DNA of 64,000 nucleotides from Escherichia coli (GTDB lineage: Bacteria > Pseudomonadota > Gammaproteobacteria > Enterobacterales > Enterobacteriaceae), in NCBI RefSeq assembly GCF_030013595.1, contig NZ_CP122768.1; one strand, written 5' to 3'. A program made the translations under genes and the position numbers. The number at the start of each line of letters is the position of its first letter. Within the stretch, counting starts at the first letter, position 1. Below the pieces are notes generated by a model. The model ran no database searches. It was given only the letters and a program-made list of their open reading frames with translations, and was not told the DNA's origin. Below are positions 6,010 through 30,577 of the stretch, in pieces.

Positions 6010-8393
6010 AGCATTGTCTCCAGCTCTTCCCTCAGCGCCTTACTGTCAGTAATGAGCTCAGGAACCCTTTCATTTAATGCCTGAAGTCGCCCGGTAAGCC
6101 GTTCCTGCGCCTGCTGATCGCGTTTATGATCTTCAGAGCTCTGAATCAGCGTGTTACGCAGTTGTTCAACTTTCTCCCTGAATGCGCAGAAAAAGGCATC
6201 GATTTCCTGGCGGACGGGCTGGTTAATATCCTGCTCAATGGATGCCTGCAGCTCCCCGAAATATGCCCGGGTCAGTGACATAACTTCCTCTCTGGCCTTG
6301 TTGATATTGATCACGCTGCGACTCACATCCTCGTCATAGTTTTCCCAGCCCAGGTCACTGGTGCCAAACCATCGACAAACGGTTCCCCATACGCCACTCT
6401 GCCGACGGCGACGGGTGACGGTCTCCGTTCTTTCCTCCATAAGCGCACTCAGATTTATTTTTACCGCGAGCCGGGTCTGTAACTGGCTGACTGCCGGAAA
6501 ACTGATTTTTACGGTAAAGCCCTCATCCTCCAGGCGGGCATTGATGCGACCGGCAATGTTTTCTGTGGCGTACAGGGCCGTGCCACGAAAACCTGTTTCA
6601 ATCCCGCTGACGATTTTCTCCAGCTCAGGCCGGAACTGTGCTTCAGCCTCACGGTGCAGGCTGGTCACGGTCGATTCGATTTGCGTCATCAGTTCAAGGG
6701 CTGCCCTGCGATCACTGAATTTTATTTCGGGGCTGTCCGGATCAAAGTCCCGCATCCTGTCATGCTGATTTCCGGTTCCGAAAATATCGTGAAAGAAAGC
6801 GAATGCGTTTCTCTCCCGGGGCTGCGCTGAATTTTCTTCCTCCAGCATTTGCTGTTCTTTGCGTTTACCGCTTCTGAAATAGTCGTTCAGCTCCTCCTCC
6901 AGTGAGGCACAGACCTTCGTCAGTAATTCCCCGGTTTTGGTATTGATGTCCTCCATGGCCATTCTGACATCACCGGTCACCTGATTCTGACATTCCTCAA
7001 TCTCCTGGATATCCGCCAGCAGGCTGGTAATATGCGCCTGTAGTGACTGAATGCTTTGCTGCAGCCCCTGATGACGTAATGACAGATATTCGCTGACATT
7101 TTCTGCATTCTGCATCAGTTTTGCGGCGGCAGAGTCAACCGCCAGTGCCGCCGCTCTGGAATGGGAGCTCTGTATGACTTCCGTTATCAGTTGATCGATC
7201 AGAGATATATTCCAGAGTTTTTCTGCCTTTTTATTTACCTTAGTGCTGTCTTTCCAGTCGTCCTCTTCCACCATAGGTCCGAAAGCTTCCCTGATAAAAT
7301 CATCGACCCAGGCTTCATCAACCGGAAGCGCACCGTTTTTTCGTAACTCATGAAGCGCACGGTTAGCCAGGTACGCCTGACGTGATGAGCCGGGATAAAC
7401 GCGGGAGGCGGGCAGCACATCGCTGTTCAGCATTGCTGGCACCTTCTGGCGTACGGCATCCGCACCATCACCATTGCGATCTTTTTCATCGAATTTATTG
7501 ACCAGCACAAACAGACGACCGGCTGAGACGTCAGCAATGGCATTAAGCTCTTTACGAACCTCCTCATCGGCTTTCGAGTTCATCTGGGTGTAATCCATCA
7601 CCGCCAGCACCGCAGAGGCTTTCTGTAGTTGATCCCGCATCATCATTTCCATCTGTGGTTGTCCGGCTTCATTAGGGCCGGGGGTATCCAGCAGTGTGAG
7701 TGTTCCCTGACATGCATCCATTCCCACCAGGTGGCTGAACGCCACGTCGATCACCGGTAGTTTCTGCACTTCTGCGTATTCGTCAAAAGGAAATTCAGTC
7801 CCCATTGCCGCAGCAAGACGAACCAGGTCATTTAACGATGCCAGTCCGGTAAAGATTTCGTCTTCCCCGTGGTATTCATTTTTAAGCCAGACATCATCCG
7901 CCAGAATATCCAGTAGTTCGCGGGTATCCCCGGTTTGCTGCAGGGACTGTGCGACTTGCTGCCCTGCCGGGGTGGCGAGTTTTTCCTGCAGTGTGATTAA
8001 TAAATTGCGGACGGGCTGAATATGTTCCAGATGGAGGACCGGTTCCGTTTTTCCGGGAACGTGGCGGATCAATGTCGGTACCGAGGTCATGGGGCGGTTA
8101 CGGTTGGGCAGAATTTCCTGCCCCACAATGGCGTTGATGGTGGTTGATTTGCCCGCCTTCATCGTGCCGACCACAGCCAGCACCATCTCCCTGCGGGCGG
8201 TTTTGATTTGTTCGCCCTCCAGCTCCTCAATTCTTTTCAGCGCTTTCCGTTTATCAAAAAGCAGCCCGTTTTCGTTCTTACTGTCAGATAACACATCCGG
8301 CTCATCAACCATTTGCCGGAGCAGATTGATATTCAGTTGCAAAAGCCGGTCGGCTTCATCACAAAGCAGGGCGATGTTCTTTTCGTGCATCAT
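6006..8393 (-). CDS. Dynamin-like GTPase (CrfC/YjdA-like bacterial dynamin)
   Basis: 795-aa ORF; G1 P-loop VVGTMKAGKSTTINAIVG, G3 LLDTPGPNE, G4 VNKFD; long helical C-terminal region; N-terminal block closely resembles my recollection of E. coli YjdA. Confidence 0.75.
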   Translation of the reverse strand: MMHEKNIALLCDEADRLLQLNINLLRQMVDEPDVLSDSKNENGLLFDKRKALKRIEELEGEQIKTARREMVLAVVGTMKAGKSTTINAIVGQEILPNRNRPMTSVPTLIRHVPGKTEPVLHLEHIQPVRNLLITLQEKLATPAGQQVAQSLQQTGDTRELLDILADDVWLKNEYHGEDEIFTGLASLNDLVRLAAAMGTEFPFDEYAEVQKLPVIDVAFSHLVGMDACQGTLTLLDTPGPNEAGQPQMEMMMRDQLQKASAVLAVMDYTQMNSKADEEVRKELNAIADVSAGRLFVLVNKFDEKDRNGDGADAVRQKVPAMLNSDVLPASRVYPGSSRQAYLANRALHELRKNGALPVDEAWVDDFIREAFGPMVEEDDWKDSTKVNKKAEKLWNISLIDQLITEVIQSSHSRAAALAVDSAAAKLMQNAENVSEYLSLRHQGLQQSIQSLQAHITSLLADIQEIEECQNQVTGDVRMAMEDINTKTGELLTKVCASLEEELNDYFRSGKRKEQQMLEEENSAQPRERNAFAFFHDIFGTGNQHDRMRDFDPDSPEIKFSDRRAALELMTQIESTVTSLHREAEAQFRPELEKIVSGIETGFRGTALYATENIAGRINARLEDEGFTVKISFPAVSQLQTRLAVKINLSALMEERTETVTRRRRQSGVWGTVCRWFGTSDLGWENYDEDVSRSVININKAREEVMSLTRAYFGELQASIEQDINQPVRQEIDAFFCAFREKVEQLRNTLIQSSEDHKRDQQAQERLTGRLQALNERVPELITDSKALREELETML

Positions 8394-8500
8394 TCACCTT
8401 TATAAATTCAATAATTCAGAACTGCGGTGAACAGCAATGAGCGTCCTTTCCCATTACTGCATGAATTTTCCTGAAATCGTATTTCCGGGATACCGTATAA

Positions 8501-18389: not shown

Positions 18390-19028
18390 TCAGCGAACCG
18401 TCCATGCCGGGCTGAAATCCTCTTCCTGAAACAGCTCCGTCAGCCCGCTAATCTGTTTCAATCTGAGAACTTCATCCTGGTCCATACCCAGCTCCGTACC
18501 AATGCGTTCATTCGTCCAGCCCAGGCGCGACAGGTCCCTGACAATATCAGACATTGAGGTTATCTGATGTTTGCCCCTGGCCCGGTTATGTCGGATGGTC
18601 GCAGCAATACGTGAGGCCTGTCCCTTTCTCTCCGGATTAATACAGACCACCGGCAGCCAGCCCTTCAGACGTTTTCCCGTACCTGCTTCCCTGCCCAGCA
18701 CCTGGCGATGAAAACCATCCACCACCAGGTAATGGTTCTTTTCCTCAGACACCACCACCGGTTGTGTGAAACCATCTTTCTCCAGTGACTGCTTCAGCAG
18801 TTTCTTCTCACCCGGCGCCATGACATTAGGATTGTAATCATTGGCCACCACCTCATCTGCTTTTACCCACAGCACACAGTCCACTGGCTCATGTGCAAAA
18901 GGACTGACTTCATGAAGCACTCTGCGCAGGTGATTAAGGGCCTGTATGGTCTCTTCTTCTGGTCGTTCCTGGCTGAAGTACTGACGAATCATGTTGCCAA
19001 TTATCTCCGGTGTCACAGAATCCCCCAT
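18390..19028 (-). CDS. ParB-like nuclease-domain protein with DGQHR-type motif (IbrB/DndB-like)
   Basis: 212 aa; YLVVDGFHRQVLGRE (DG-F/Q-HR motif); start overlaps stop region of upstream PAPS-reductase-like gene by 16 nt. Confidence 0.65.
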   Translation of the reverse strand: MGDSVTPEIIGNMIRQYFSQERPEEETIQALNHLRRVLHEVSPFAHEPVDCVLWVKADEVVANDYNPNVMAPGEKKLLKQSLEKDGFTQPVVVSEEKNHYLVVDGFHRQVLGREAGTGKRLKGWLPVVCINPERKGQASRIAATIRHNRARGKHQITSMSDIVRDLSRLGWTNERIGTELGMDQDEVLRLKQISGLTELFQEEDFSPAWTVR

Positions 19029-20290
19029 TCCTTCCTCCTTTCTTTCATACGCTGCAGATAACGTTCATAGTGCCGGGGTTTGTTCGGACTGAAGGAGAGG
19101 GTCCGGTACCAGAAATCATTCTTTATAAGTGTCTTACAGATACGCCGCCAGGACGGAATATCCCGGCTCCCCAGGTCATTCTCCTGTTCATCCGGGATGT
19201 CATCCGGGAAGCCCCGCGTCTGATACCAGCGCAGGTAGACAGCAATTTTATTACGGTAATGTTCTGCCGTTCTTTCCGGCATCACATCCAGCAGGAACAT
19301 CGCATAGCTGCGCCAGGTATGATGGGCTGGTTTTGATATACGTTTACGCAGGGCAAAATAGGCACCGCTTTCATTGGCATAAAGCGCCCCGCTGGCAGCG
19401 CCTGACACCCGCTCACACATCCTGGCCCAGGTTTCCGGCTCCAGAACATGGTAAAGCCACAGCCCCTTACGTTGTTCAGGACCAAAAGGTTCACAGACAC
19501 GCATGTTGCGTAACGGCACGTCGGCACGGTACATCAGGTCATACAGAGGATTGTAAATGGCACAAGCTCTGGCGTTATATATCCAGATATCGCGGGCTTT
19601 CCAGTCATACAACGGATACATGGTGTAATAAAACCCTTCAGGCGATGCCGTGGTCCAGGGCTTATCATCGGCATATCTCAGTTTGCGCTGAGACACCAGC
19701 CCCATAAAGCGATTGAGGGATTCATCCGCACGAACACCGGTCAGCACTGCCACTCCACACCGGTTACCGGCAAACCAGGAAGAAAATGCCGGAACAAATT
19801 CTTCAAACGTCATGGCATACCGGAAAAAGGGAAAATATGTCATATCCGTAATGGCCTCTTCCGGTGGCTGGCGAACCCAGGTCACTCCTGGCTCCCAGCA
19901 TATCCACTCCGGCTGAAACTGCGAGACGCCGTTTACCGTGGTCAGGGGAAGTGCCACCCAGTAAAAGGTTTCCGTCACATCATGGTACATTTCCCGCATC
20001 TTCTGAATATGTTCAATGGTGCACCGATACTGGGCCTCCCAGTCAATGAACAGAACAGAGAAATGACGTTTTCTCCTGCGGGCCACCTCTGCCACAAGAT
20101 GGAAAAGCACGGTGGAATCCTTTCCACCTGAAAAAGACAGACATACCGACGGAAATGTTTCAAAAATCCACTCAATGCGGGCGATTGCAGCACGCAAAAC
20201 ATTTTCTCCGGTAAGGATTTTTTCGGTTAAAAGCGTATCACTCATTTTCCTGGCTTTATGTCGAATAATTCTGTTTATACATTCAGGCAA
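19013..20290 (-). CDS. PAPS reductase / PP-loop ATP-pyrophosphatase family protein (IbrA/DndC-like)
   Basis: 425 aa; PP-loop SFSGGKDST near N-terminus; long C-terminal extension; translationally coupled to ParB-like gene. Confidence 0.7.
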   Translation of the reverse strand: MPECINRIIRHKARKMSDTLLTEKILTGENVLRAAIARIEWIFETFPSVCLSFSGGKDSTVLFHLVAEVARRRKRHFSVLFIDWEAQYRCTIEHIQKMREMYHDVTETFYWVALPLTTVNGVSQFQPEWICWEPGVTWVRQPPEEAITDMTYFPFFRYAMTFEEFVPAFSSWFAGNRCGVAVLTGVRADESLNRFMGLVSQRKLRYADDKPWTTASPEGFYYTMYPLYDWKARDIWIYNARACAIYNPLYDLMYRADVPLRNMRVCEPFGPEQRKGLWLYHVLEPETWARMCERVSGAASGALYANESGAYFALRKRISKPAHHTWRSYAMFLLDVMPERTAEHYRNKIAVYLRWYQTRGFPDDIPDEQENDLGSRDIPSWRRICKTLIKNDFWYRTLSFSPNKPRHYERYLQRMKERRKEWGIL

Positions 20291-20745
20291 ACTTCATTAA
20301 TAACTCACCGCTTTGGGGATAAATAATAACAACAAAAATCTTCAGATATTAACCTGGTTGTTGGATTTGTTATCACATCCTTTATCCACCTGCTTCTTAC
20401 TGGTAACACACCTGGAAAATCCATGCATTTTCAACATATACTATCCTTTCAACTTGTAAATAAGAAAATATGATGCAGATGGTGAACAATTCAAATATCA
20501 TTTTGCAGGAAGTATTCACTGTAATAGAATTACCCCCTGATAAAGTTTATTCACTAAGGAATTATTCAACAGAAACATTCCCTGTTAGCTTTGAGCAATA
20601 GCACTTATTTTTATATGTATCAGGAATACGTACGTTGATGTAACCAAAACAAAGAAGCCTGTGTCCATGGGGTTCGTACAATTGTGTGTGGCACATGACC
20701 AAATCAGGTTTGAGACCTCCCGCTGCAATATTTTTTATTCAGATT

Positions 20746-23427
20746 TTAGCCTGTCAGGCCTGACAGAAACGCTCCCAACTTCCCTTCTATATCACTGTCT
20801 ATAGTACGTAATCTTAGCAATGGCAGGCCGCATTTCTTCAGTATACTGTTTTTAAGTTCATCACGTTCAGCCTGAACACTGGTCAGATGATAACCTCCAT
20901 CCACTTCAATAACCCCTAATGGAGTCTTCCCGACCTTATAGTAAACAACAAAGTCACAACTGGCCCGGTTACGCATGAATAACTGTTCACGGTGTGTAAA
21001 ATCCCCCCGCTCCAGCGACACCAACTGATTCAGCGCTATTTGTGAATGAAACATCATACTCCGATAACTATCCTGCGACAGGATATCCCGCAACAGGCAG
21101 GCCACAATCTGTTCTGACTTAAAGTGTGAATCATTTGAATTCAATCTACTATTCAGTCGTTCCAGTGATTTGTCATACTCACTGTACAGCAAATCAAATG
21201 CTGATATGACCGGGCTCTCGAAAATCTCTCCGTCATCAGCGTAGTATTTGATGTAACGAATCAGCGCCGCAATATGTCCAGCGTGGCGTTCAAATACATC
21301 ATTACCAGTCACCAGCGTAAATTTATTTCGGGCCCTTGAAACAGCGACATTCACCAGTTCAGGATTATCAACAAACGCGATGTTCCGACTGTGCTGGCTG
21401 CTGCGCTTCTTATCCAGCACAGTGGAAAACACAATTTCATCGCACTCCCGTCCCTGAAATTTATGCACCGTCGATTTCACAAAATCAGCAGGCAGCACTT
21501 TTTCAGCCAGATTAACCTGTGCATTATATGGGGCAATGTATCCCCTGCTACTTTCTTCATCCCAGTAATGACCTTCCAGAGATTCAAGCTCCCTGAGATT
21601 TGAAAAATTACGGGTATGGTTTCCTTTTGCCGTGATGACCAGAGATAATGAGGCTTCACCGGAATCAACCGTTAACGGTATCAGAGCATTATCATAAAAC
21701 TGCTTATTACAAAATTGAATGATTTTAGGATGACAACGATAATGCTCTTTAAGAAGGGTTACTGGCACCATGTTCCTGAACAACATACAAACCGAATCAA
21801 GTAGACTATATTTCTCACAATTATAGTATTCTGCCGGTGGAGATGGGCTGTTCGGGAGTAATACAGGAACATGTGGAAGTTGCTTACGATCCCCTACAAC
21901 GATTACATTACGGGCACATCCCAGTCCCAGAATGCCCGGAACAATATCCTGCTGCGAGGCTTCATCAATAATAACATAATCAAGAAGGGCCCCCTTGCCG
22001 ATAGAGTTAATAATCGAATGCGTACTGCTACCAATAATCGGAAAACGCTTTATAAAACGGTCAAATTCATCCCTGTATGTCTCTGCCGAGAATGAACTTC
22101 TTGTTGAAACATTTCTTCGCAGATGTTGCTTTAAATAAAGCATAGACCATGATGTCAGGCGCCCCAGTAAAATTTTAAAATCAGATTTTTTAAATACTTC
22201 CTCATATTCATTCAGAGAAATTTGTTTTTCCCGGATATTTTTTTCATAATAAGAAAGCTGAAGAGAAGTAAATAGCGCCAGCCTTCTCTCCGGAATCATC
22301 AATGGTTTGACTTTCAGTATCATGAAGTTTAACAACAAATCAATTCTGTTTCTGAATCCAATCCGCCTGTCAGAAAGGTAATGAATATAAGCCATCAGGT
22401 CGGTTGTTTTTTGTGAGGAAAATCGGTATTTGTGAGAAAAAAGCTCCTCCGGTCGAAGATTCTGACTCTGCCATTGCTGCAGGTATTTATACTCAATATT
22501 CAGCTCATTAATTTCTGCTTTTAACGAAGCGACCTGGTTAATGGCATTCAGGTGTTTTTTCACTTGTTGAAGTACATCATCAATCGCATTTGCAGACGGT
22601 GAGTCAGGTAAGACTTCCTCAGAACGCGAAATCGACGTTGAAAAAAACTGTTGCCTGTTCCCCGTACTCCCCAGTCGTGCCATCACATATCCCAGTTGCT
22701 GTTTGTCCATCTTTTCATAAACATTACTGACAGCTGAGTTATTATTGGACAAAATTGCCACTGTTTTATTCTGAATTAATATATTAGCAACAATATTGAG
22801 TATAGTCTGTGTTTTACCTGTTCCAGGTGGTCCTTCAATAACTGAAATCTGTGAGGAAAATGCCCGTTCGACAGCCAGCAACTGACTTTCATTAAGACCA
22901 AACGGAAAAATCAAACCCCATGGCGAATCACGTTTTTTACTCTGTCCTGAACAGTATGCATGCAAGGCGGTATCCGGATGAGGAACTATTTTCTTTATCT
23001 GCCTAAGGATATTCTCATCGATATTTCTGTTATTACCACGGGCATAAAAAATACGTTCATTAGCCACCCTACACAAGTAATTAAACACGGCATGCTCTGT
23101 AAATGCTGAACACTGTTGAAAGTCAAGGCCGGTCGTTTTCATGATGTAGGGTCGTTCACCCTCGCGGTAATAAACAGCAGCATATTTATCACCATATATA
23201 ATAACCAGTTCAGCCCGGGATGTTACAGCGTTCCCTTTCCTTTCGAGGAAAACATTTCGCAAATTTACAGTTGGCGTTATCTGACATACAGAAAGCGGAC
23301 GAGTATATTTTCTCCCGCTGCGAAAATGACAGGTCAGCATAACCTCTCTGTCGTCATTTCCAGCCCACAGCGTCCAGTCGGTAATTTTATGAGTCTTATT
23401 TTCACCGTCAACACAAATCGTGACCAT
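20746..23427 (-). CDS. Superfamily-1 (Upf1/DNA2-like) helicase with N-terminal unknown domain and C-terminal Vsr/DUF559-like endonuclease domain
   Basis: 893 aa; Walker A GPPGTGKT, Walker B IIDEASQ, motif III VVGDRKQLP, YRCHPKIIQFCNKQFY, motif V VHKFQGRECDEIVFS, motif VI VAVSRARNKF; C-terminus CDFVVYY...VIEVDGGYH...AERDELKNSILKKCGLPLLRL resembles the DUF559/Vsr-type PD-(D/E)xK fold. Confidence 0.75.
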   Translation of the reverse strand: MVTICVDGENKTHKITDWTLWAGNDDREVMLTCHFRSGRKYTRPLSVCQITPTVNLRNVFLERKGNAVTSRAELVIIYGDKYAAVYYREGERPYIMKTTGLDFQQCSAFTEHAVFNYLCRVANERIFYARGNNRNIDENILRQIKKIVPHPDTALHAYCSGQSKKRDSPWGLIFPFGLNESQLLAVERAFSSQISVIEGPPGTGKTQTILNIVANILIQNKTVAILSNNNSAVSNVYEKMDKQQLGYVMARLGSTGNRQQFFSTSISRSEEVLPDSPSANAIDDVLQQVKKHLNAINQVASLKAEINELNIEYKYLQQWQSQNLRPEELFSHKYRFSSQKTTDLMAYIHYLSDRRIGFRNRIDLLLNFMILKVKPLMIPERRLALFTSLQLSYYEKNIREKQISLNEYEEVFKKSDFKILLGRLTSWSMLYLKQHLRRNVSTRSSFSAETYRDEFDRFIKRFPIIGSSTHSIINSIGKGALLDYVIIDEASQQDIVPGILGLGCARNVIVVGDRKQLPHVPVLLPNSPSPPAEYYNCEKYSLLDSVCMLFRNMVPVTLLKEHYRCHPKIIQFCNKQFYDNALIPLTVDSGEASLSLVITAKGNHTRNFSNLRELESLEGHYWDEESSRGYIAPYNAQVNLAEKVLPADFVKSTVHKFQGRECDEIVFSTVLDKKRSSQHSRNIAFVDNPELVNVAVSRARNKFTLVTGNDVFERHAGHIAALIRYIKYYADDGEIFESPVISAFDLLYSEYDKSLERLNSRLNSNDSHFKSEQIVACLLRDILSQDSYRSMMFHSQIALNQLVSLERGDFTHREQLFMRNRASCDFVVYYKVGKTPLGVIEVDGGYHLTSVQAERDELKNSILKKCGLPLLRLRTIDSDIEGKLGAFLSGLTG

Positions 23428-23667
23428 ATTCTTACTCAGAAATTATCATTTAACTTACGGAAAATTGTTAAGGCACTCCCGATATTAGCTCCGGAGGATT
23501 TTCCACAACTCCGGGACTGTTAACATATTTCTGCCTGCCATATATACATTGAATTTAGTCATAACAGTCAATACCAGAATTACAGGAATGCGATGCCGAT
23601 ACGCTGGTTATTGAATACTGGTAGCCCCTGAGCACTAATTCATCACGATACTCTGTATTTACTGTTT

Positions 23668-24801
23668 TCACTGCTTTTTACAACCATTCCCCCAGGTAAA
23701 ATGCTGCTCCTCCGGTGATGGCTGTGTCAGAAACTGCCATCCCGGAATAGCCACGCTGACCGCCAGCAATGCCGCACAGACACCAGCCACAAACGGTTTC
23801 AGAAACGTGGGCGGGGATTTCTGAAGGGAGGGTGACTGCTCCGCCTGCACTTTCCCCTTGCGATTATCAAGGCTCAGTGCATCCAGACGCACCGCGCCAT
23901 TTGCCGCAAGCAGCCCTTCCCGGTTATCCACGCTTCCCGGCAGACTCAGCGAAAAATCCCCTGTTCCCGTCTGAATCAGACTGCCTTTACGATTTGACAG
24001 GCTTTGTGCCGATATCTGCAGTGTGTCGGCATTTATCGTACCGCCATTACTGCTGAACTGCCCGGCAGTCCGGGCGGAAAGCGTATCGGCACTCAGTTGC
24101 GCATTCTGTGTAGACAGATTTCCACTGGTTGCATTCAGCTCAGTATGTTGTCCCTGTATCCGGCTGTTACCTAAATCCAGCCCCTGCTCAATGTCCCGTA
24201 AATCCAGCAGAGAACCTTCGTGTGCCGGGAATGAGGAATACAACTGAATATAGTCATCACTGTCCGGTGTCAGACGCACATGTCGCACAACACCGGGAAT
24301 AATAACCAGCCGGAGGATACCGCTTTTTAAATCCTGCGAAGGTGCCAGAACACGGGTGGTGACATAACCATGATCGACCAGACGGTTCTGCAATGTACTC
24401 ATCAGCAGATTAATTCCTTTCGCCCCCAGGCAATGCCCGACCGCCCCGTTGGCGATTTTTTGTAAAGGCAGCCAGTGTGGTAACGCATCAGCCCCCTTCA
24501 GTTCCGTCTGTTTAATCTGAAAACAGGGCGTTTCAACAGGAAAATTAATCTTATGGGCAAAAGAGCCAGGTGCAGAAAGGCGAACATCAGGGGCTGAAGG
24601 CGTCAGTTGTTGCTCAAGGGCTTCCTGACGCTGCTGCTGAATGATAAATGCTTCATCTCCGCTACGCCGGACATCCGCTGCCTGAAGAGATAAAGGCGAT
24701 AATAAAGCAGACATCAGTGTCAGTGACAGCAAGGACGGACAGCGCCGGAATAAGCTTTGTTCCTCAGTCCTCTCGTTCCTGCAACATAATTTTCCAGTCA
24801 A
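23668..24801 (-). pseudogene. Two-partner-secretion remnant: TpsB/CdiB-like POTRA N-terminus fused to TpsA/CdiA-like repeat fragment
   Basis: Signal peptide [17 protein letters not shown]-like block ([10 protein letters not shown]...[17 protein letters not shown]), then low-complexity hemagglutinin-type repeats; no beta-barrel region, so likely an internal-deletion product. Confidence 0.4.
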
Positions 24802-25388
24802 ACGAAAAACCTTTTATTCATGTCATACCAACAATCACCAGCCTCCTGACGATACCTCCCACCATGTTTTGCGATGGCACGCTACCGCCCTTCCGGTATT
24901 TACCCGCATCAACCGGTACCAGAATGCTGAGTAACAAACCAGCTAGAATTGACTTAATTTTGATCATTATAGAATAATGATCTGAACTACAGCAACATGA
25001 CAGATTTATCGATCGATATAACACAAATGAACAGTTCTTTATTCTGACAAATATCGCAAAAACAGCACATTACAAAATTTATAACCATAATTACTGGAAA
25101 AGTGCAGAAAATTATTCCACTGAATGCTTTTAATACAGTTGGTTAGCTTAAAAAATAGCAATTTTTGATTTCAGTCATTGAAAGTTGCAATGTTTGACGA
25201 TTCAACAGCATTTAAGTGAGTTTCAGGATATGGGAAGGACATGAAAGGAGGAGCGCAATAAAATACACAGGAAGAAGGGGAAAATGTTTCGTAAAAACAG
25301 AAAATTAACAGCGCACATCAGGAAACGCAGTCTCCTGATTCAGTGCTACCACATGAAAATTTAGTTAACTGTTACCGTACTAAAATTT

Positions 25389-25580
25389 ATGTCAGAAGAT
25401 GTTCCATTACCGAAAGTCAATCAGCGATACAAAGACGATCATGGTGCGCTTGTCACCCTGACCAGTGTTGAGGAAACCCGGGTGGTGTTTATGCAGGACG
25501 GCTATCCGCATCCCTGCATGCGACCGATGTACAACTTTCTGGGAAAATTCAAACCCGAACCCCGGGAAGAAACAGAATAA
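25389..25580 (+). CDS. DUF4222-like small prophage protein
   Basis: 63 aa; pattern RYKDDHGALVTLTSVEETRVVFMQDGYPHPCMRPMYNF fits the recalled DUF4222 consensus. Confidence 0.45.
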   Translation: MSEDVPLPKVNQRYKDDHGALVTLTSVEETRVVFMQDGYPHPCMRPMYNFLGKFKPEPREETE

Positions 25581-25632
25581 AACGAAATCCCTGCCGGCAA
25601 TCACACTACCTGATAGCAGCATAATCCACTTA

Positions 25633-25941
25633 TTAATTCTCATCCCCGGAGACAAGCCCAGAAAACCACTCCGGGTGTTCACTGTATGCCGTGTTCAGCG
25701 CATCCCTGGAAACGTTTATATAAAAGCTGTCCTGCAATTTGCGGGTAACAACTTCTGCCAGGCGATTCCGGTTATCCACCAGTCCGGCATAACCTCTCTC
25801 TGCCAGCCACTCATTCAGTTCATGTTCCAGAGACAGATTGATAATATCATAATCGGACCTTGCCATTCCCGTTTCCTTAGCACATGTTTTCAGGCACGGG
25901 GATAAAGTATAAAGAATGTCATACTGCTGCTGCCAGAGCAA
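25633..25941 (-). CDS. Hypothetical small protein (true start may be the internal Met giving ~77 aa)
   Basis: ORF on same strand as the two downstream hypothetical genes; no motif recognised. Confidence 0.3.
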   Translation of the reverse strand: MLWQQQYDILYTLSPCLKTCAKETGMARSDYDIINLSLEHELNEWLAERGYAGLVDNRNRLAEVVTRKLQDSFYINVSRDALNTAYSEHPEWFSGLVSGDEN

Positions 25942-25961
25942 TATTCCCCCTGATGGTTGTA

Positions 25962-28099: not shown

Positions 28100-28336
28100 A
28101 AGTTATGGCTGTTCTGATACAGGAAAATAAACGTTCATTCTATGGTTACCTCTTCCTGTTATATAGAAGAATTTTAAACGACAAGTAAGGGAATATAAAT
28201 GAAAATAACAAAAAATAAAAATGCAACTATAAAAAACAGTCATCAGTCGGCTGCTTTTCAATGTTTACCTTATCATTTTCTGGTAATGCTGCCAACTTAC
28301 TGATTTAGTGTATGATGGTGATTTTAAGGTGCTTGC

Positions 28337-28612
28337 GTGGCTTCCATTTCCATCAGATGTCCTTCCTGCTCCGCTACTGAAGGCGTGGTGCGTAACGGCA
28401 AAAGCACTGCCGGACATCAGCGCTATCTCTGCTCTCATTGCCGTAAAACATGGCAACTACAGTTCACTTACACCGCCTCTCAGCCCGGTAAGCACCAGAA
28501 AATCATTGATATGGCCATGAATGGCGTCGGATGTCGCGCCAGTGCACGCATTATGGGCGTTGGCCTCAACACGGTTTTACGTCACTTAAAAAACTCAGGC
28601 CGCAGTCGGTAA
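28337..28612 (+). CDS. insA: IS1 InsA
   Basis: 91 aa [40 protein letters not shown]... zinc-finger protein. Confidence 0.9.
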
Positions 28613-29034
28613 CCTCGCGCATACAACCGGGCAGTGATGTGATTGTCTGCGCTGAAATGGACGAACAGTGGGGCTACGTCGGTGCTAAATCACGTCAGCG
28701 CTGGCTGTTTTACGCGTATGACAGGATACGGAGGACGGTTGTGGCGCACGTCTTCGGTGAACGCACTCTGGCCACACTGGAGCGTCTTCTGAGCCTGCTG
28801 TCGGCCTTTGAGGTCGTGGTATGGATGACGGATGGCTGGCCGCTGTATGAATCACGCCTGAAGGGAAAGCTGCACGTTATCAGCAAGCGTTACACTCAGC
28901 GCATTGAGCGACATAATCTGAATCTGAGACAACATCTGGCAAGGCTGGGACGGAAGTCACTGTCGTTCTCAAAATCGGTGGAGCTGCATGACAAGGTCAT
29001 CGGGCATTATCTGAACATAAAACACTATCAGTAA
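28531..29034 (+). CDS. insB: IS1 InsB (transposase frame; expressed as InsAB' by frameshift)
   Basis: 167-aa ORF overlapping insA in the -1 frame, classic IS1 arrangement. Confidence 0.9.
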
Positions 29035-29050
29035 GTTGGAGTCATTACCT

Positions 29051-29452: not shown

Positions 29453-30577
29453 CTACAATTGTTTCCCGTTGTTTTTTAATTTTCTCATCAAAACCTCTGC
29501 AATCTCTGCAGGACTGGGTTGTTCAGCCATTTCAGCGGCTACCTGATCTGAACAGAAGCGTAGTGAATCATCATAAAGAAGGCGATTTACCAAATCACTG
29601 GTCAGTCCATGCTTGTCCGGAATAATCCCACACCCACGCTTCGCAACAATTTCTGCATTAACAGAGCGATCTGCACCTTCGCCAAACACAATCTGTGGTA
29701 TTCCACTATACAGCGCTGTCAGGGTATTACCTGCGCCACCGTGATGAATAAATCCATCAGCTCCATTAAGGAATACACCCATAGGTATCCAGTCAACCAG
29801 ACGTACATTTGATGGTAGTTTTCGTAAACCAGTACGAGCATTTATTGCAAGTTGCAAAATGATATCAGCATCAACTTCATTTGCAGAATCCATAACCCAT
29901 GAAATCAGCTCCAGACCATCAACCATTGGTTTTACAGTGCCAAGGCTGATAAGTAAACGTTTCCGATCAGAATCCCTGTCCCACCATGTTTCCTTTACAG
30001 CACCTCCGTTATAAGGAATATATCTCATTGAGATAACCGGTTCTCCAGCATTTTTAAGAATGCTCATACTTGGGGGAGCAACATCAATCCATGCTAAATC
30101 ACATAGTGGACCGCTGACTCCATGCCGCCTGTAAGCATTGCTTAAAGAACGGTTTAACATCTGAATATGGGCAGATGTATGCGCGAATCCAACAGCCAGC
30201 ATCACTGAAGGAATTCTATATTTAGCAGCAACCAATGGGCCTGCCGGATCAAGAGGGGGATAGACTATTAAATCTGGCCTCCATTTTCCTGCAAAATCGA
30301 TGAGGTTATCTGCCATTTCATCGCTAAAAAAAGAGAAATGACCAATAATATTACTTTTTTTCCTCAACTCTTCCTGATGGCGATATCCAGCCTCTGAATC
30401 TAAACCTGGAACTGCATCAAAAACAACCAGTCCAGCTTCTGCTGCTTTATTCGCGAATTTGCCAGCGCTACTAATTACTACATCATGTCCAATTACACGA
30501 AAGGCCTGAGCCAGAGAAATCAATGGGTATAACAAACCGTACAGCGGTGGGCCAATAAAAAGAATACGTTTTCGCAT
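29453..30577 (-). CDS. iroB: Enterobactin C-glucosyltransferase (salmochelin synthesis), orphan copy
   Basis: 374 aa; MRKRILFIGPPLYGLLYPLISLAQAFRVIGHDVVISSAGKFANKAAEAGLVVFDAVPGLDSEAGYRHQE... and GT-B C-terminus HHGGAGNTLTAL match my recollection of IroB along the whole length; no iroCDEN nearby. Confidence 0.8.
   Translation of the reverse strand: MRKRILFIGPPLYGLLYPLISLAQAFRVIGHDVVISSAGKFANKAAEAGLVVFDAVPGLDSEAGYRHQEELRKKSNIIGHFSFFSDEMADNLIDFAGKWRPDLIVYPPLDPAGPLVAAKYRIPSVMLAVGFAHTSAHIQMLNRSLSNAYRRHGVSGPLCDLAWIDVAPPSMSILKNAGEPVISMRYIPYNGGAVKETWWDRDSDRKRLLISLGTVKPMVDGLELISWVMDSANEVDADIILQLAINARTGLRKLPSNVRLVDWIPMGVFLNGADGFIHHGGAGNTLTALYSGIPQIVFGEGADRSVNAEIVAKRGCGIIPDKHGLTSDLVNRLLYDDSLRFCSDQVAAEMAEQPSPAEIAEVLMRKLKNNGKQL

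Follow-up and report, generated by a model that had tools for sequence, protein, structure and literature searches.

Overall architecture of the chimeric ORF

The window analysed here is a stretch of 64,000 nucleotides from Escherichia coli (contig NZ_CP122768.1 of assembly GCF_030013595.1), the minus strand of which carries at positions 23668..24801 a single open reading frame (ORF) that encodes at most 377 residues from a TTG start. In RefSeq, the annotation of identical DNA calls it a “POTRA domain-containing protein” of 348 residues (WP_001345400.1), starting from the ATG at 24714. Segment-by-segment comparison revealed that the ORF is a chimera of three genes: cdiB and cdiA of a contact-dependent growth inhibition (CDI) locus, which belong to the TpsB and TpsA types of two-partner secretion, and a tagA-like gene of type VI secretion (T6SS). 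The piecewise homology covers all residues of the ORF but the last 11, and these homology signals are strong and not a matter of chance.

A Pfam scan of the ORF identified a complete POTRA_2 domain at residues 94-170 (E = 1.3e-22), followed by a POTRA_3 match at residues 172-209 (E = 5.4e-9) that covers profile positions 2-40 of 56 only, compared to positions 2-56 in the intact protein, so that the second of the two POTRA domains of a TpsB protein is truncated. The ShlB domain (PF03865), which corresponds to the 16-strand barrel of TpsB, was not found in the ORF, the DNA encoding it having been deleted. The same scan of the ORF found neither the TPS domain (PF05860) nor the ESPR of a TpsA protein, both of which lie inside a 2,985-bp deletion, nor a PT-VENN domain, and the pre-toxin (VENN) region, the toxin and the immunity gene cdiI are missing from it as well. 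The β-helix repeats of a TpsA protein are present, with the 20-residue filamentous-hemagglutinin (FHA) repeat TIGR01731 (NCBIfam) matching over its cut-off at residues 279-314 (E = 6e-11), though the repeats amount to 115 residues compared to ~3,050 residues of CdiA. From the three-part architecture of TagA (ImpA_N, transmembrane segment and VasL), the ORF retains the transmembrane segment alone, and Pfam matched neither ImpA_N nor VasL in it. Moreover, no Pfam or NCBIfam family spans the whole protein, and PADLOC gave zero matches to the ORF.

The hydropathy profile (Kyte-Doolittle, 19-residue window) has two hydrophobic stretches, one being the core of the signal peptide at about residues 21-40, and the other a strong segment centred on residues 339-350 with a maximum of 2.12. 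Hydropathy and similarity together place a signal-like core at about residues 21-40, followed by LQA/AD, and residues 1-42 share at least 90% identity with the N-terminal end of intact CdiB, in agreement with the N-terminal signal sequence of TpsB proteins. The TTG at 24801 has an AAAGG motif 8 nt upstream and the frame is open from it, whereas with the RefSeq start at ATG 24714 the remaining signal peptide is a poor one. The orthologous cdiB in strain STEC_O31 was argued to start at a UUG located 18 nt upstream of the annotated start (Halvorsen et al., PMC8510554). This UUG would correspond to position 24732 of the window if the annotated start there is the same ATG, and the UUG-start question raised for cdiB-STEC4 applies to the ORF in the window too. 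Altogether, Pfam, NCBIfam and hydropathy bear out the description in the first-pass annotation, namely a single ORF that combines a TpsB-type signal peptide and POTRA block with hemagglutinin repeats and a hydrophobic tail, and that lacks the transporter barrel.

Fusion of cdiB to cdiA at a 12-bp repeat

The cdiB segment (24188..24801, minus strand) encodes residues 1-205, extending through a 12-mer shared with cdiA to residue 208, and comprises the signal sequence, POTRA1 and the truncated POTRA2. Residues 1-208 are at least 90% identical to intact CdiB, and BLASTP against the intact 579-residue CdiB gave 204 identities out of 227, the identity ending at “DIEQGL”. At the DNA level, window positions 24176-25951, which hold the 5′ end of cdiB and its upstream DNA, match positions 15329-17108 of comparison sequence L007 from strain SC422 with an identity of 95.8%. 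The conserved region upstream of cdiB (24802..25951) is collinear with L007, L006 and L004, and presumably carries the cdi promoter.

The cdiA segment (23833..24175, minus strand) encodes residues 209-323, which correspond to residues 440-554 of the SC422 CdiA and consist of FHA-1-type repeats in the cdiA frame. This repeat block is ~96% identical (110/115 residues) to its counterpart in BLASTP against the 3,050-residue CdiA, and window positions 23833-24187 match L007 12001-12355 with an identity of 97.5%. In the parent CdiA, the repeats sit just downstream of the TPS domain. A tblastn search of the window with three CdiA proteins returned the fragment at 23821-24324 only. As the first-pass annotation had suggested aligning the ORF to intact cdiBAI loci, it is worth stating that the window does map piecewise onto the 5′ end of cdiB and an internal segment of cdiA.

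The two segments meet at Junction 1 (24176..24187), a single copy of the 12-bp repeat TCCAGCCCCTGC (coding strand GCAGGGGCTGGA) that spans codons E205-D209 and was placed to the base by three-way alignment. All five intact loci compared possess two copies of the 12-mer TCCAGCCCCTGC, one in cdiB and the other in cdiA, against one copy in the window, and the two copies are always 2,985 bp (995 codons) apart. This arrangement carries the signature of a deletion between short direct repeats, which took out 2,985 bp containing the CdiB barrel, the entire cdiC gene and 439 codons at the start of cdiA, with the TPS domain among the losses. The fusion at Junction 1 is necessarily in frame. The 2,985 bp between the two copies of the 12-mer thus agree with the earlier proposal that an internal deletion fused tpsB to tpsA.

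Intact class IV loci

The intact loci compared are those of SC422 (L007/L010), 2015C-3905 (L006), 2012C-4431 (L004), VG35A2 (L012) and STEC17-183 (L013), which were traced via fixed breakpoints in the lower-identity matches to a 1.7-kb region containing the ORF. In all five, the gene order is cdiB, cdiC and cdiA, each being an uninterrupted ORF, and, save for VG35A2 (see below), the ancestral genes are kept in a like flanking context that includes a DUF4222 gene and an ECs1377-family gene. The intact cdiB encodes 579 residues with POTRA_2, POTRA_3 and the ShlB barrel PF03865 at residues 230-543 (E = 8.5e-110), cdiC encodes a 175-residue protein of the HlyC/RTX-toxin acyltransferase family (PF02794, E = 6e-32), and cdiA encodes 2,922-3,050 residues with an ESPR at residues 1-38, a TPS domain at residues 68-330, FHA repeats and PT-VENN. 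What marks a CDI locus as class IV is a cdiC gene lying between its cdiB and cdiA genes (PMC8510554), a class that was defined together with the function of CdiC, the product of a HlyC-family lysyl acyltransferase gene (PMC8510554). As cdiC lies between cdiB and cdiA in the intact relatives, the ancestral locus belongs to class IV; cdiC itself is missing from the locus in the window, which is no longer a functional class IV member, and tblastn found no match to CdiC anywhere in the window.

In O178:H19 strain 2012C-4431 (L004), a 2,228-residue “hemagglutinin repeat” coding sequence (CDS) was considered as the cdiA reference and rejected, since it gave repeat-level similarity of ~36% only. The 5′ third of the true cdiA is missing from this CDS, and comparison of the whole locus at the DNA level gave the match. 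Upstream of the intact cdiBCA of VG35A2, a type I Zorya anti-phage system (zorA1; L012 11256-12348) takes the place of the DUF4222 and ECs1377 genes, another sign that this neighbourhood swaps defence and competition modules.

Compared to the characterized class IV cdiBCAI locus of CdiA-STEC4 (STEC_O31; Halvorsen et al., mBio 2021, PMC8510554), the cdiB segment, its upstream DNA and the repeat block of the window are orthologous to class IV loci, and the intact relative 2012C-4431 carries an Ntox25-type toxin, as STEC4 does. However, the window lacks the CdiB barrel, cdiC, the TPS domain, the receptor-binding domain, FHA-2, the pre-toxin/VENN region, the toxin and cdiI, and its locus cannot deliver a toxin. 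In Salmonella enterica S-1643, a class IV locus has likewise lost export, by ordinary mutation (a mutation in cdiB and a frameshift in cdiC; PMC8510554). In contrast to the point mutations and frameshifts of S-1643, the locus in the window decayed via large deletions that gave an open chimeric frame.

The tagA segment and Junctions 2 and 3

The hydrophobic tail derives from neither CdiA nor CdiB. The segment at 23702..23832 (minus strand) encodes residues 324-366, corresponding to residues 221-264 of a 451-residue ImpA_N/VasL protein of strain A30, and represents its hydrophobic transmembrane stretch in the native tagA frame, with 43 residues left. Window positions 23702-23834 match positions 10001-10133 of comparison sequence L008 with an identity of 95.5%, and BLASTP of the tail against TagA gave 41 identities out of 53. 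In A30, the gene for this 451-residue protein is intact, adjoins tssE/J/G/F/A, and its product carries both ImpA_N and VasL (Pfam). Among T6SS accessory proteins, such an arrangement of ImpA_N, a transmembrane region and VasL defines the TagA class (PMC6745524). Accordingly, the ORF shares the membrane segment with the TagA-type protein encoded next to the T6SS cluster of A30 and SW070919, but misses its ImpA_N and VasL domains.

At Junction 2 (23833..23834), codon ~554 of cdiA is joined to codon ~221 of tagA, with a shared sequence of 2 bp (TG). Relative to SC422, the deletion amounts to ~14.1 kb, which comprises the remaining ~2,500 codons of cdiA, the small ORFs that occupy the place of the immunity gene, a gene with DUF596, an orphan fragment with VENN, the genes of a GIY-YIG nuclease and of a 3′-5′ exonuclease, and ~220 codons of tagA. 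Beyond the tagA segment, Junction 3 and the read-through tail (23668..23701, minus strand) contribute 11 residues and the stop codon, with a breakpoint around 23688-23702 in the alignment of L009 and L008. Compared to SW070919, ~2.7 kb are missing at Junction 3, namely the 3′ end of tagA, which encodes VasL, and two downstream genes. The junction is already found in SC422, where tagA keeps residues 1-265 only (L010 5124-5948). The collapse by one deletion that the first-pass annotation had envisaged therefore holds for the fusion of tpsB to tpsA and fails for the tail, which is a TagA segment brought in by a second deletion of ~14.1 kb.

Other collapse alleles of the locus

The locus has collapsed independently in at least four further alleles, the breakpoints of which differ, represented by SCU-306, P0037, P0094 and P0091. 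In SCU-306 (L003 8530-9437), residues 1-145 of CdiB are fused to residues 297-448 of TagA, and the fusion adjoins a Qat anti-phage system and a KAP NTPase. The fusions in P0037, P0094 and P0091 include CdiB ~1-232 joined to the C-terminus of TagA, CdiB ~1-130 joined to the VENN/Ntox25 end of CdiA, and CdiB ~1-157 joined to the TPS region of CdiA. Given these alleles, deletional decay at this locus is recurrent, and the 5′ stub of cdiB seems to be a point at which deletions end repeatedly, in a variable region of the island. A further variant, the 554-residue P0002, possesses Junctions 1 and 2 together with a complete TagA C-terminus (VasL) and has no Junction 3. Its source is a single 2,195-bp contig of run ERR11010899 (L014 333-1997, Logan).

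Distribution of the ORF and its island

A search of 5.8 billion proteins returned 1,329 matches at E <= 1e-10, the best 120 of which are considered here. Among these, coverage of at least 92% was found only in three clusters, namely the 377- and 348-residue forms of the ORF itself (358 and 1,082 members, respectively) and the single 554-residue variant. The other proteins cover at most 68% of the ORF, match the CdiB N-terminus only, and mostly have the PF03865 barrel. An end-to-end alignment with an intact known family, which would have contradicted the fusion claimed by the first-pass annotation, is thus not among them.

The 1.7-kb region is 100% identical in many O157:H7, O145, O111 and O103 strains and in the atypical enteropathogenic E. 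coli (EPEC) E110019. At least 80% of it is present in about 490 of the 5,426 complete E. coli genomes, where the ORF is intact with an identity of at least 99%. Queries of 100 bp spanning each junction matched 492 complete genomes for Junction 1, 496 for Junction 2 and 626 for Junction 3. The cdiA fragment occurs unfused in roughly 170 genomes. The nearly equal counts of 492 and 496 indicate that Junctions 1 and 2 travel together, and Junction 3 is more widespread. Two candidates for single-junction intermediates, H90 and H91, in which a “POTRA domain-containing protein” is annotated at a cdiA fragment, were discarded, as they proved to be intact loci with misleading annotation.

The ORF lies in the tellurite-resistance/iha island, with ter, iha, aerobactin and cah nearby. 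The order of the genes and the names of their products suggest that it is ECs1382/Z1640, the “HecB-like protein” of SpLE1/S-loop 72/O-islands 43 and 48. The two share the order of an ECs1377-family gene, the insertion sequence (IS) pair ECs1380/1381, the ORF, a split helicase gene, PAPS reductase, IbrB and a PerC homologue (PchD, ECs1388), and the DNA of O157:H7 genomes is identical to the window save for an IS insertion upstream. Compared to the ECs1382/Z1640 region of O157:H7, the window lacks IS629/IS1203 and its helicase gene is intact. In O157:H7, IS629/IS1203 is inserted at window positions 24835-24840, ~36 bp upstream of the TTG, and 24835-24840 is duplicated around the IS. This upstream copy is absent from the window, E110019, O145:NM FWSEC0002 and O111, which sets the window apart from a typical O157:H7. 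The “HecB-like protein” has been listed for O157 Sakai among putative virulence-related genes, and several non-O157 enterohemorrhagic E. coli (EHEC) strains possess it too (PMC2323221), and the lineage II O157 strain FRIK 920 is without the whole 10.8-kb segment (PMC1890555). Two papers were found that cite the tag ECs1382, in which the gene is merely listed as HecB-like and, in one case, as putative virulence-related. A tRNA scan of the window found no tRNA gene for integration of the island.

Neighbouring genes

Downstream of the ORF, the block at 17337..23667 (minus strand) contains the genes of a helicase, a PAPS reductase, an IbrB-like protein and a PerC-family regulator, and is collinear with SC422. 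A superfamily 1 helicase with a DUF2726 domain is encoded at 20746-23427 (minus strand; Pfam, PADLOC). It is an intact protein of 893 residues, with AAA_11/AAA_12 and a C-terminal nuclease-like DUF2726, and its core matches the PADLOC profiles of Mokosh MkoA/MkoC with E-values of 1e-43 to 1e-40. In O157:H7 TR01, the gene (L001 5351-8028) is frameshifted at residues 164/165 and annotated as two CDSs. Adjoining the helicase gene at ~18100-20290 are the genes of a PAPS-reductase-like protein with DUF3440 (19013-20290, minus strand; annotation, Pfam) and of the ParB-like IbrB.

On the other side of the ORF, an IS1 copy (InsA/InsB frames; the region of window positions 28282-29049 and 29453-30577) adjoins the remnant of a truncated α/β-hydrolase gene. 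The same region contains an intact gene for a 374-residue glycosyltransferase-like protein, annotated elsewhere as [quoted passage not shown]. The G+C content is strongly mosaic across the window, varying from 0.32 to 0.58 per kb, which together with the IS1 region shows a heavily rearranged island.

Proposed origin and fate of the ORF

The best explanation is the stepwise decay of an island that had carried, in one orientation, a class IV cdiB-cdiC-cdiA-cdiI locus with orphan modules, two nuclease genes, a tagA-like gene and the helicase/PAPS-reductase/IbrB/PerC block. Recombination between the 12-bp repeats caused a first deletion of 2,985 bp in frame; a second deletion of ~14.1 kb ran from codon ~555 of cdiA to codon ~220 of tagA, landing by luck in the tagA frame; and a third took away the 3′ end of tagA, which encodes VasL, along with two more genes. 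The product, if made, would consist of a Sec signal, one POTRA domain and half of another, 115 residues of β-helix repeats and a borrowed membrane anchor. The defining domains of all three parents are missing from it. Without the barrel it is not capable of TpsB transport; without the TPS domain, the receptor-binding domain and the toxin it cannot act as CdiA; and without ImpA_N and VasL it cannot act as TagA. Moreover, the IS ~36 bp upstream of the start in O157:H7 and the loss of the 10.8-kb segment in FRIK 920 indicate that the ORF is dispensable. The ORF is hence very probably a non-functional composite pseudogene. Its anatomy, its three junctions, the ancestral order of the genes and its distribution are shown by the comparisons above, and we infer that its product has lost function and is not under selection. 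A consensus scan for promoters and terminators over 23400-25400 gave no more matches than expected from shuffled sequence and none on the minus strand upstream of the ORF, a result that is uninformative about expression.

Some observations weigh against this interpretation. The frame is open across all three junctions, which by chance would occur in about 1 in 9 cases for Junctions 1 and 2, an unremarkable figure that is not nothing. The ORF is intact and nearly invariant in the ~490 genomes mentioned above, which belong to several EHEC and EPEC serotypes, and the upstream cdi regulatory region is kept in the window. The conservation agrees with a recent spread of the island, be it clonal or horizontal, and is little guide to selection. 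In addition, P0002 has Junctions 1 and 2 without Junction 3, and SC422 has Junction 3 without the other two, so that the deletions do not fall into one linear order, and either recombination among variants of the island or an assembly chimera has to be invoked.

The same open frame and conservation could instead reflect a new function, in which the protein would be expressed from the cdi promoter, exported by the CdiB signal and anchored in the inner membrane by the TagA segment, displaying POTRA1 in the periplasm. Such a protein might bind or titrate the TPS domains of other two-partner-secretion substrates, or serve as an envelope or antigenic factor of EHEC. The signal-like N-terminus, the complete POTRA1, the C-terminal hydrophobic segment and the listing of the gene as putatively virulence-related in O157 Sakai and its presence in several non-O157 EHEC (PMC2323221) are in line with it. 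We nevertheless regard such a new function as decidedly improbable, given the truncation of POTRA2, the upstream IS in O157:H7, the loss of the segment in FRIK 920, the several other random-looking collapse alleles at the locus, and an architecture that, among the best 120 of the 1,329 matches, is confined to the ORF's own clusters and has no whole-protein family or PADLOC match. That the chimera acts specifically as an inner-membrane-anchored periplasmic POTRA protein modulating two-partner secretion or the EHEC envelope is very unlikely. If true, it would mean a new gene born from the remains of three inter-bacterial weapon genes.

The first-pass annotation had viewed the helicase, ParB-like and PAPS-reductase genes as cargo in the place where a CdiA toxin/immunity tip might once have been. 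In the corresponding rival reading, a single deletion fused tpsB to tpsA, and this cargo was mobile and was inserted in place of the tip. Indeed, the helicase block starts ~240 bp downstream of the ORF in the window, and the toxin/immunity region is gone. However, SC422 carries the same block downstream of an intact cdiBCA with toxin, immunity genes and an orphan region: window positions 17337-23834 match L010 12278-5782 with an identity of 96.3% over 6.5 kb, ~14 kb downstream of the cdi pieces. In A30 and SW070919, islands with a T6SS carry the PAPS-reductase, IbrB and PerC genes downstream of an intact tagA, beside the T6SS cluster, and in SW070919 the helicase gene is there too. Furthermore, the tagA fragment lies between the cdiA fragment and the helicase gene with no insertion boundary, and neither IS ends nor an integrase was seen at the junction. 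The presence of the block downstream of the intact CDI locus of SC422 contradicts the cargo proposal, which is most unlikely, and the helicase, PAPS-reductase and IbrB genes are old neighbours brought together by deletion. The orphan cdiA-CT/cdiI modules that were expected nearby were not found either: searches of the 64-kb window by tblastn with CdiA (three proteins), CdiB, CdiC and TagA, and by blastn against four intact loci, gave nothing outside 23698-24801, though they would miss toxins unrelated to the query proteins.

It is extremely improbable that the ORF arose by an error of assembly or sequencing, or that it represents, in intact form, an undescribed family of short TpsB-like proteins; nothing speaks for either other than the unusual architecture. 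The junctions recur in 492, 496 and 626 complete genomes, mostly long-read and closed, and coverage above 68% among the best 120 of the 1,329 matches was found only in the three clusters of the ORF.

Consequences for annotation and biological meaning

RefSeq splits cdiB and cdiA into several pseudogene fragments in all five intact loci examined, despite their uninterrupted ORFs (L004 3640-14751; L006 4690-15954; L007 4510-15954; in L012 and L013, cdiB at 8215-9954 and cdiA from 7662 downwards). A 366-bp fragment annotated as “POTRA domain-containing protein, missing N- and C-terminus” lies inside the hemagglutinin repeats of cdiA, and the fragment boundaries coincide with pieces of WP_001345400.1. 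This coincidence suggests that the relic has been used as annotation evidence, thereby masking functional CDI systems. Such misannotation would hide functional CDI systems from genome surveys.

The preferred reading, a composite relic, implies that the ORF is an ordinary decay product of known systems that has apparently already been catalogued as ECs1382. Its origin from three genes argues against a virulence role of ECs1382, and ECs1382/Z1640 should not pass for a hemolysin activator or a secretion component. There is no mechanistic novelty in these deletions, and the value of the finding is mainly one of housekeeping, with the annotation artefact as its most useful by-product. For the biology of E. 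coli, the ORF provides a base-resolved example of how CDI and T6SS weapon loci decay on genomic islands, by short-repeat and illegitimate deletions.

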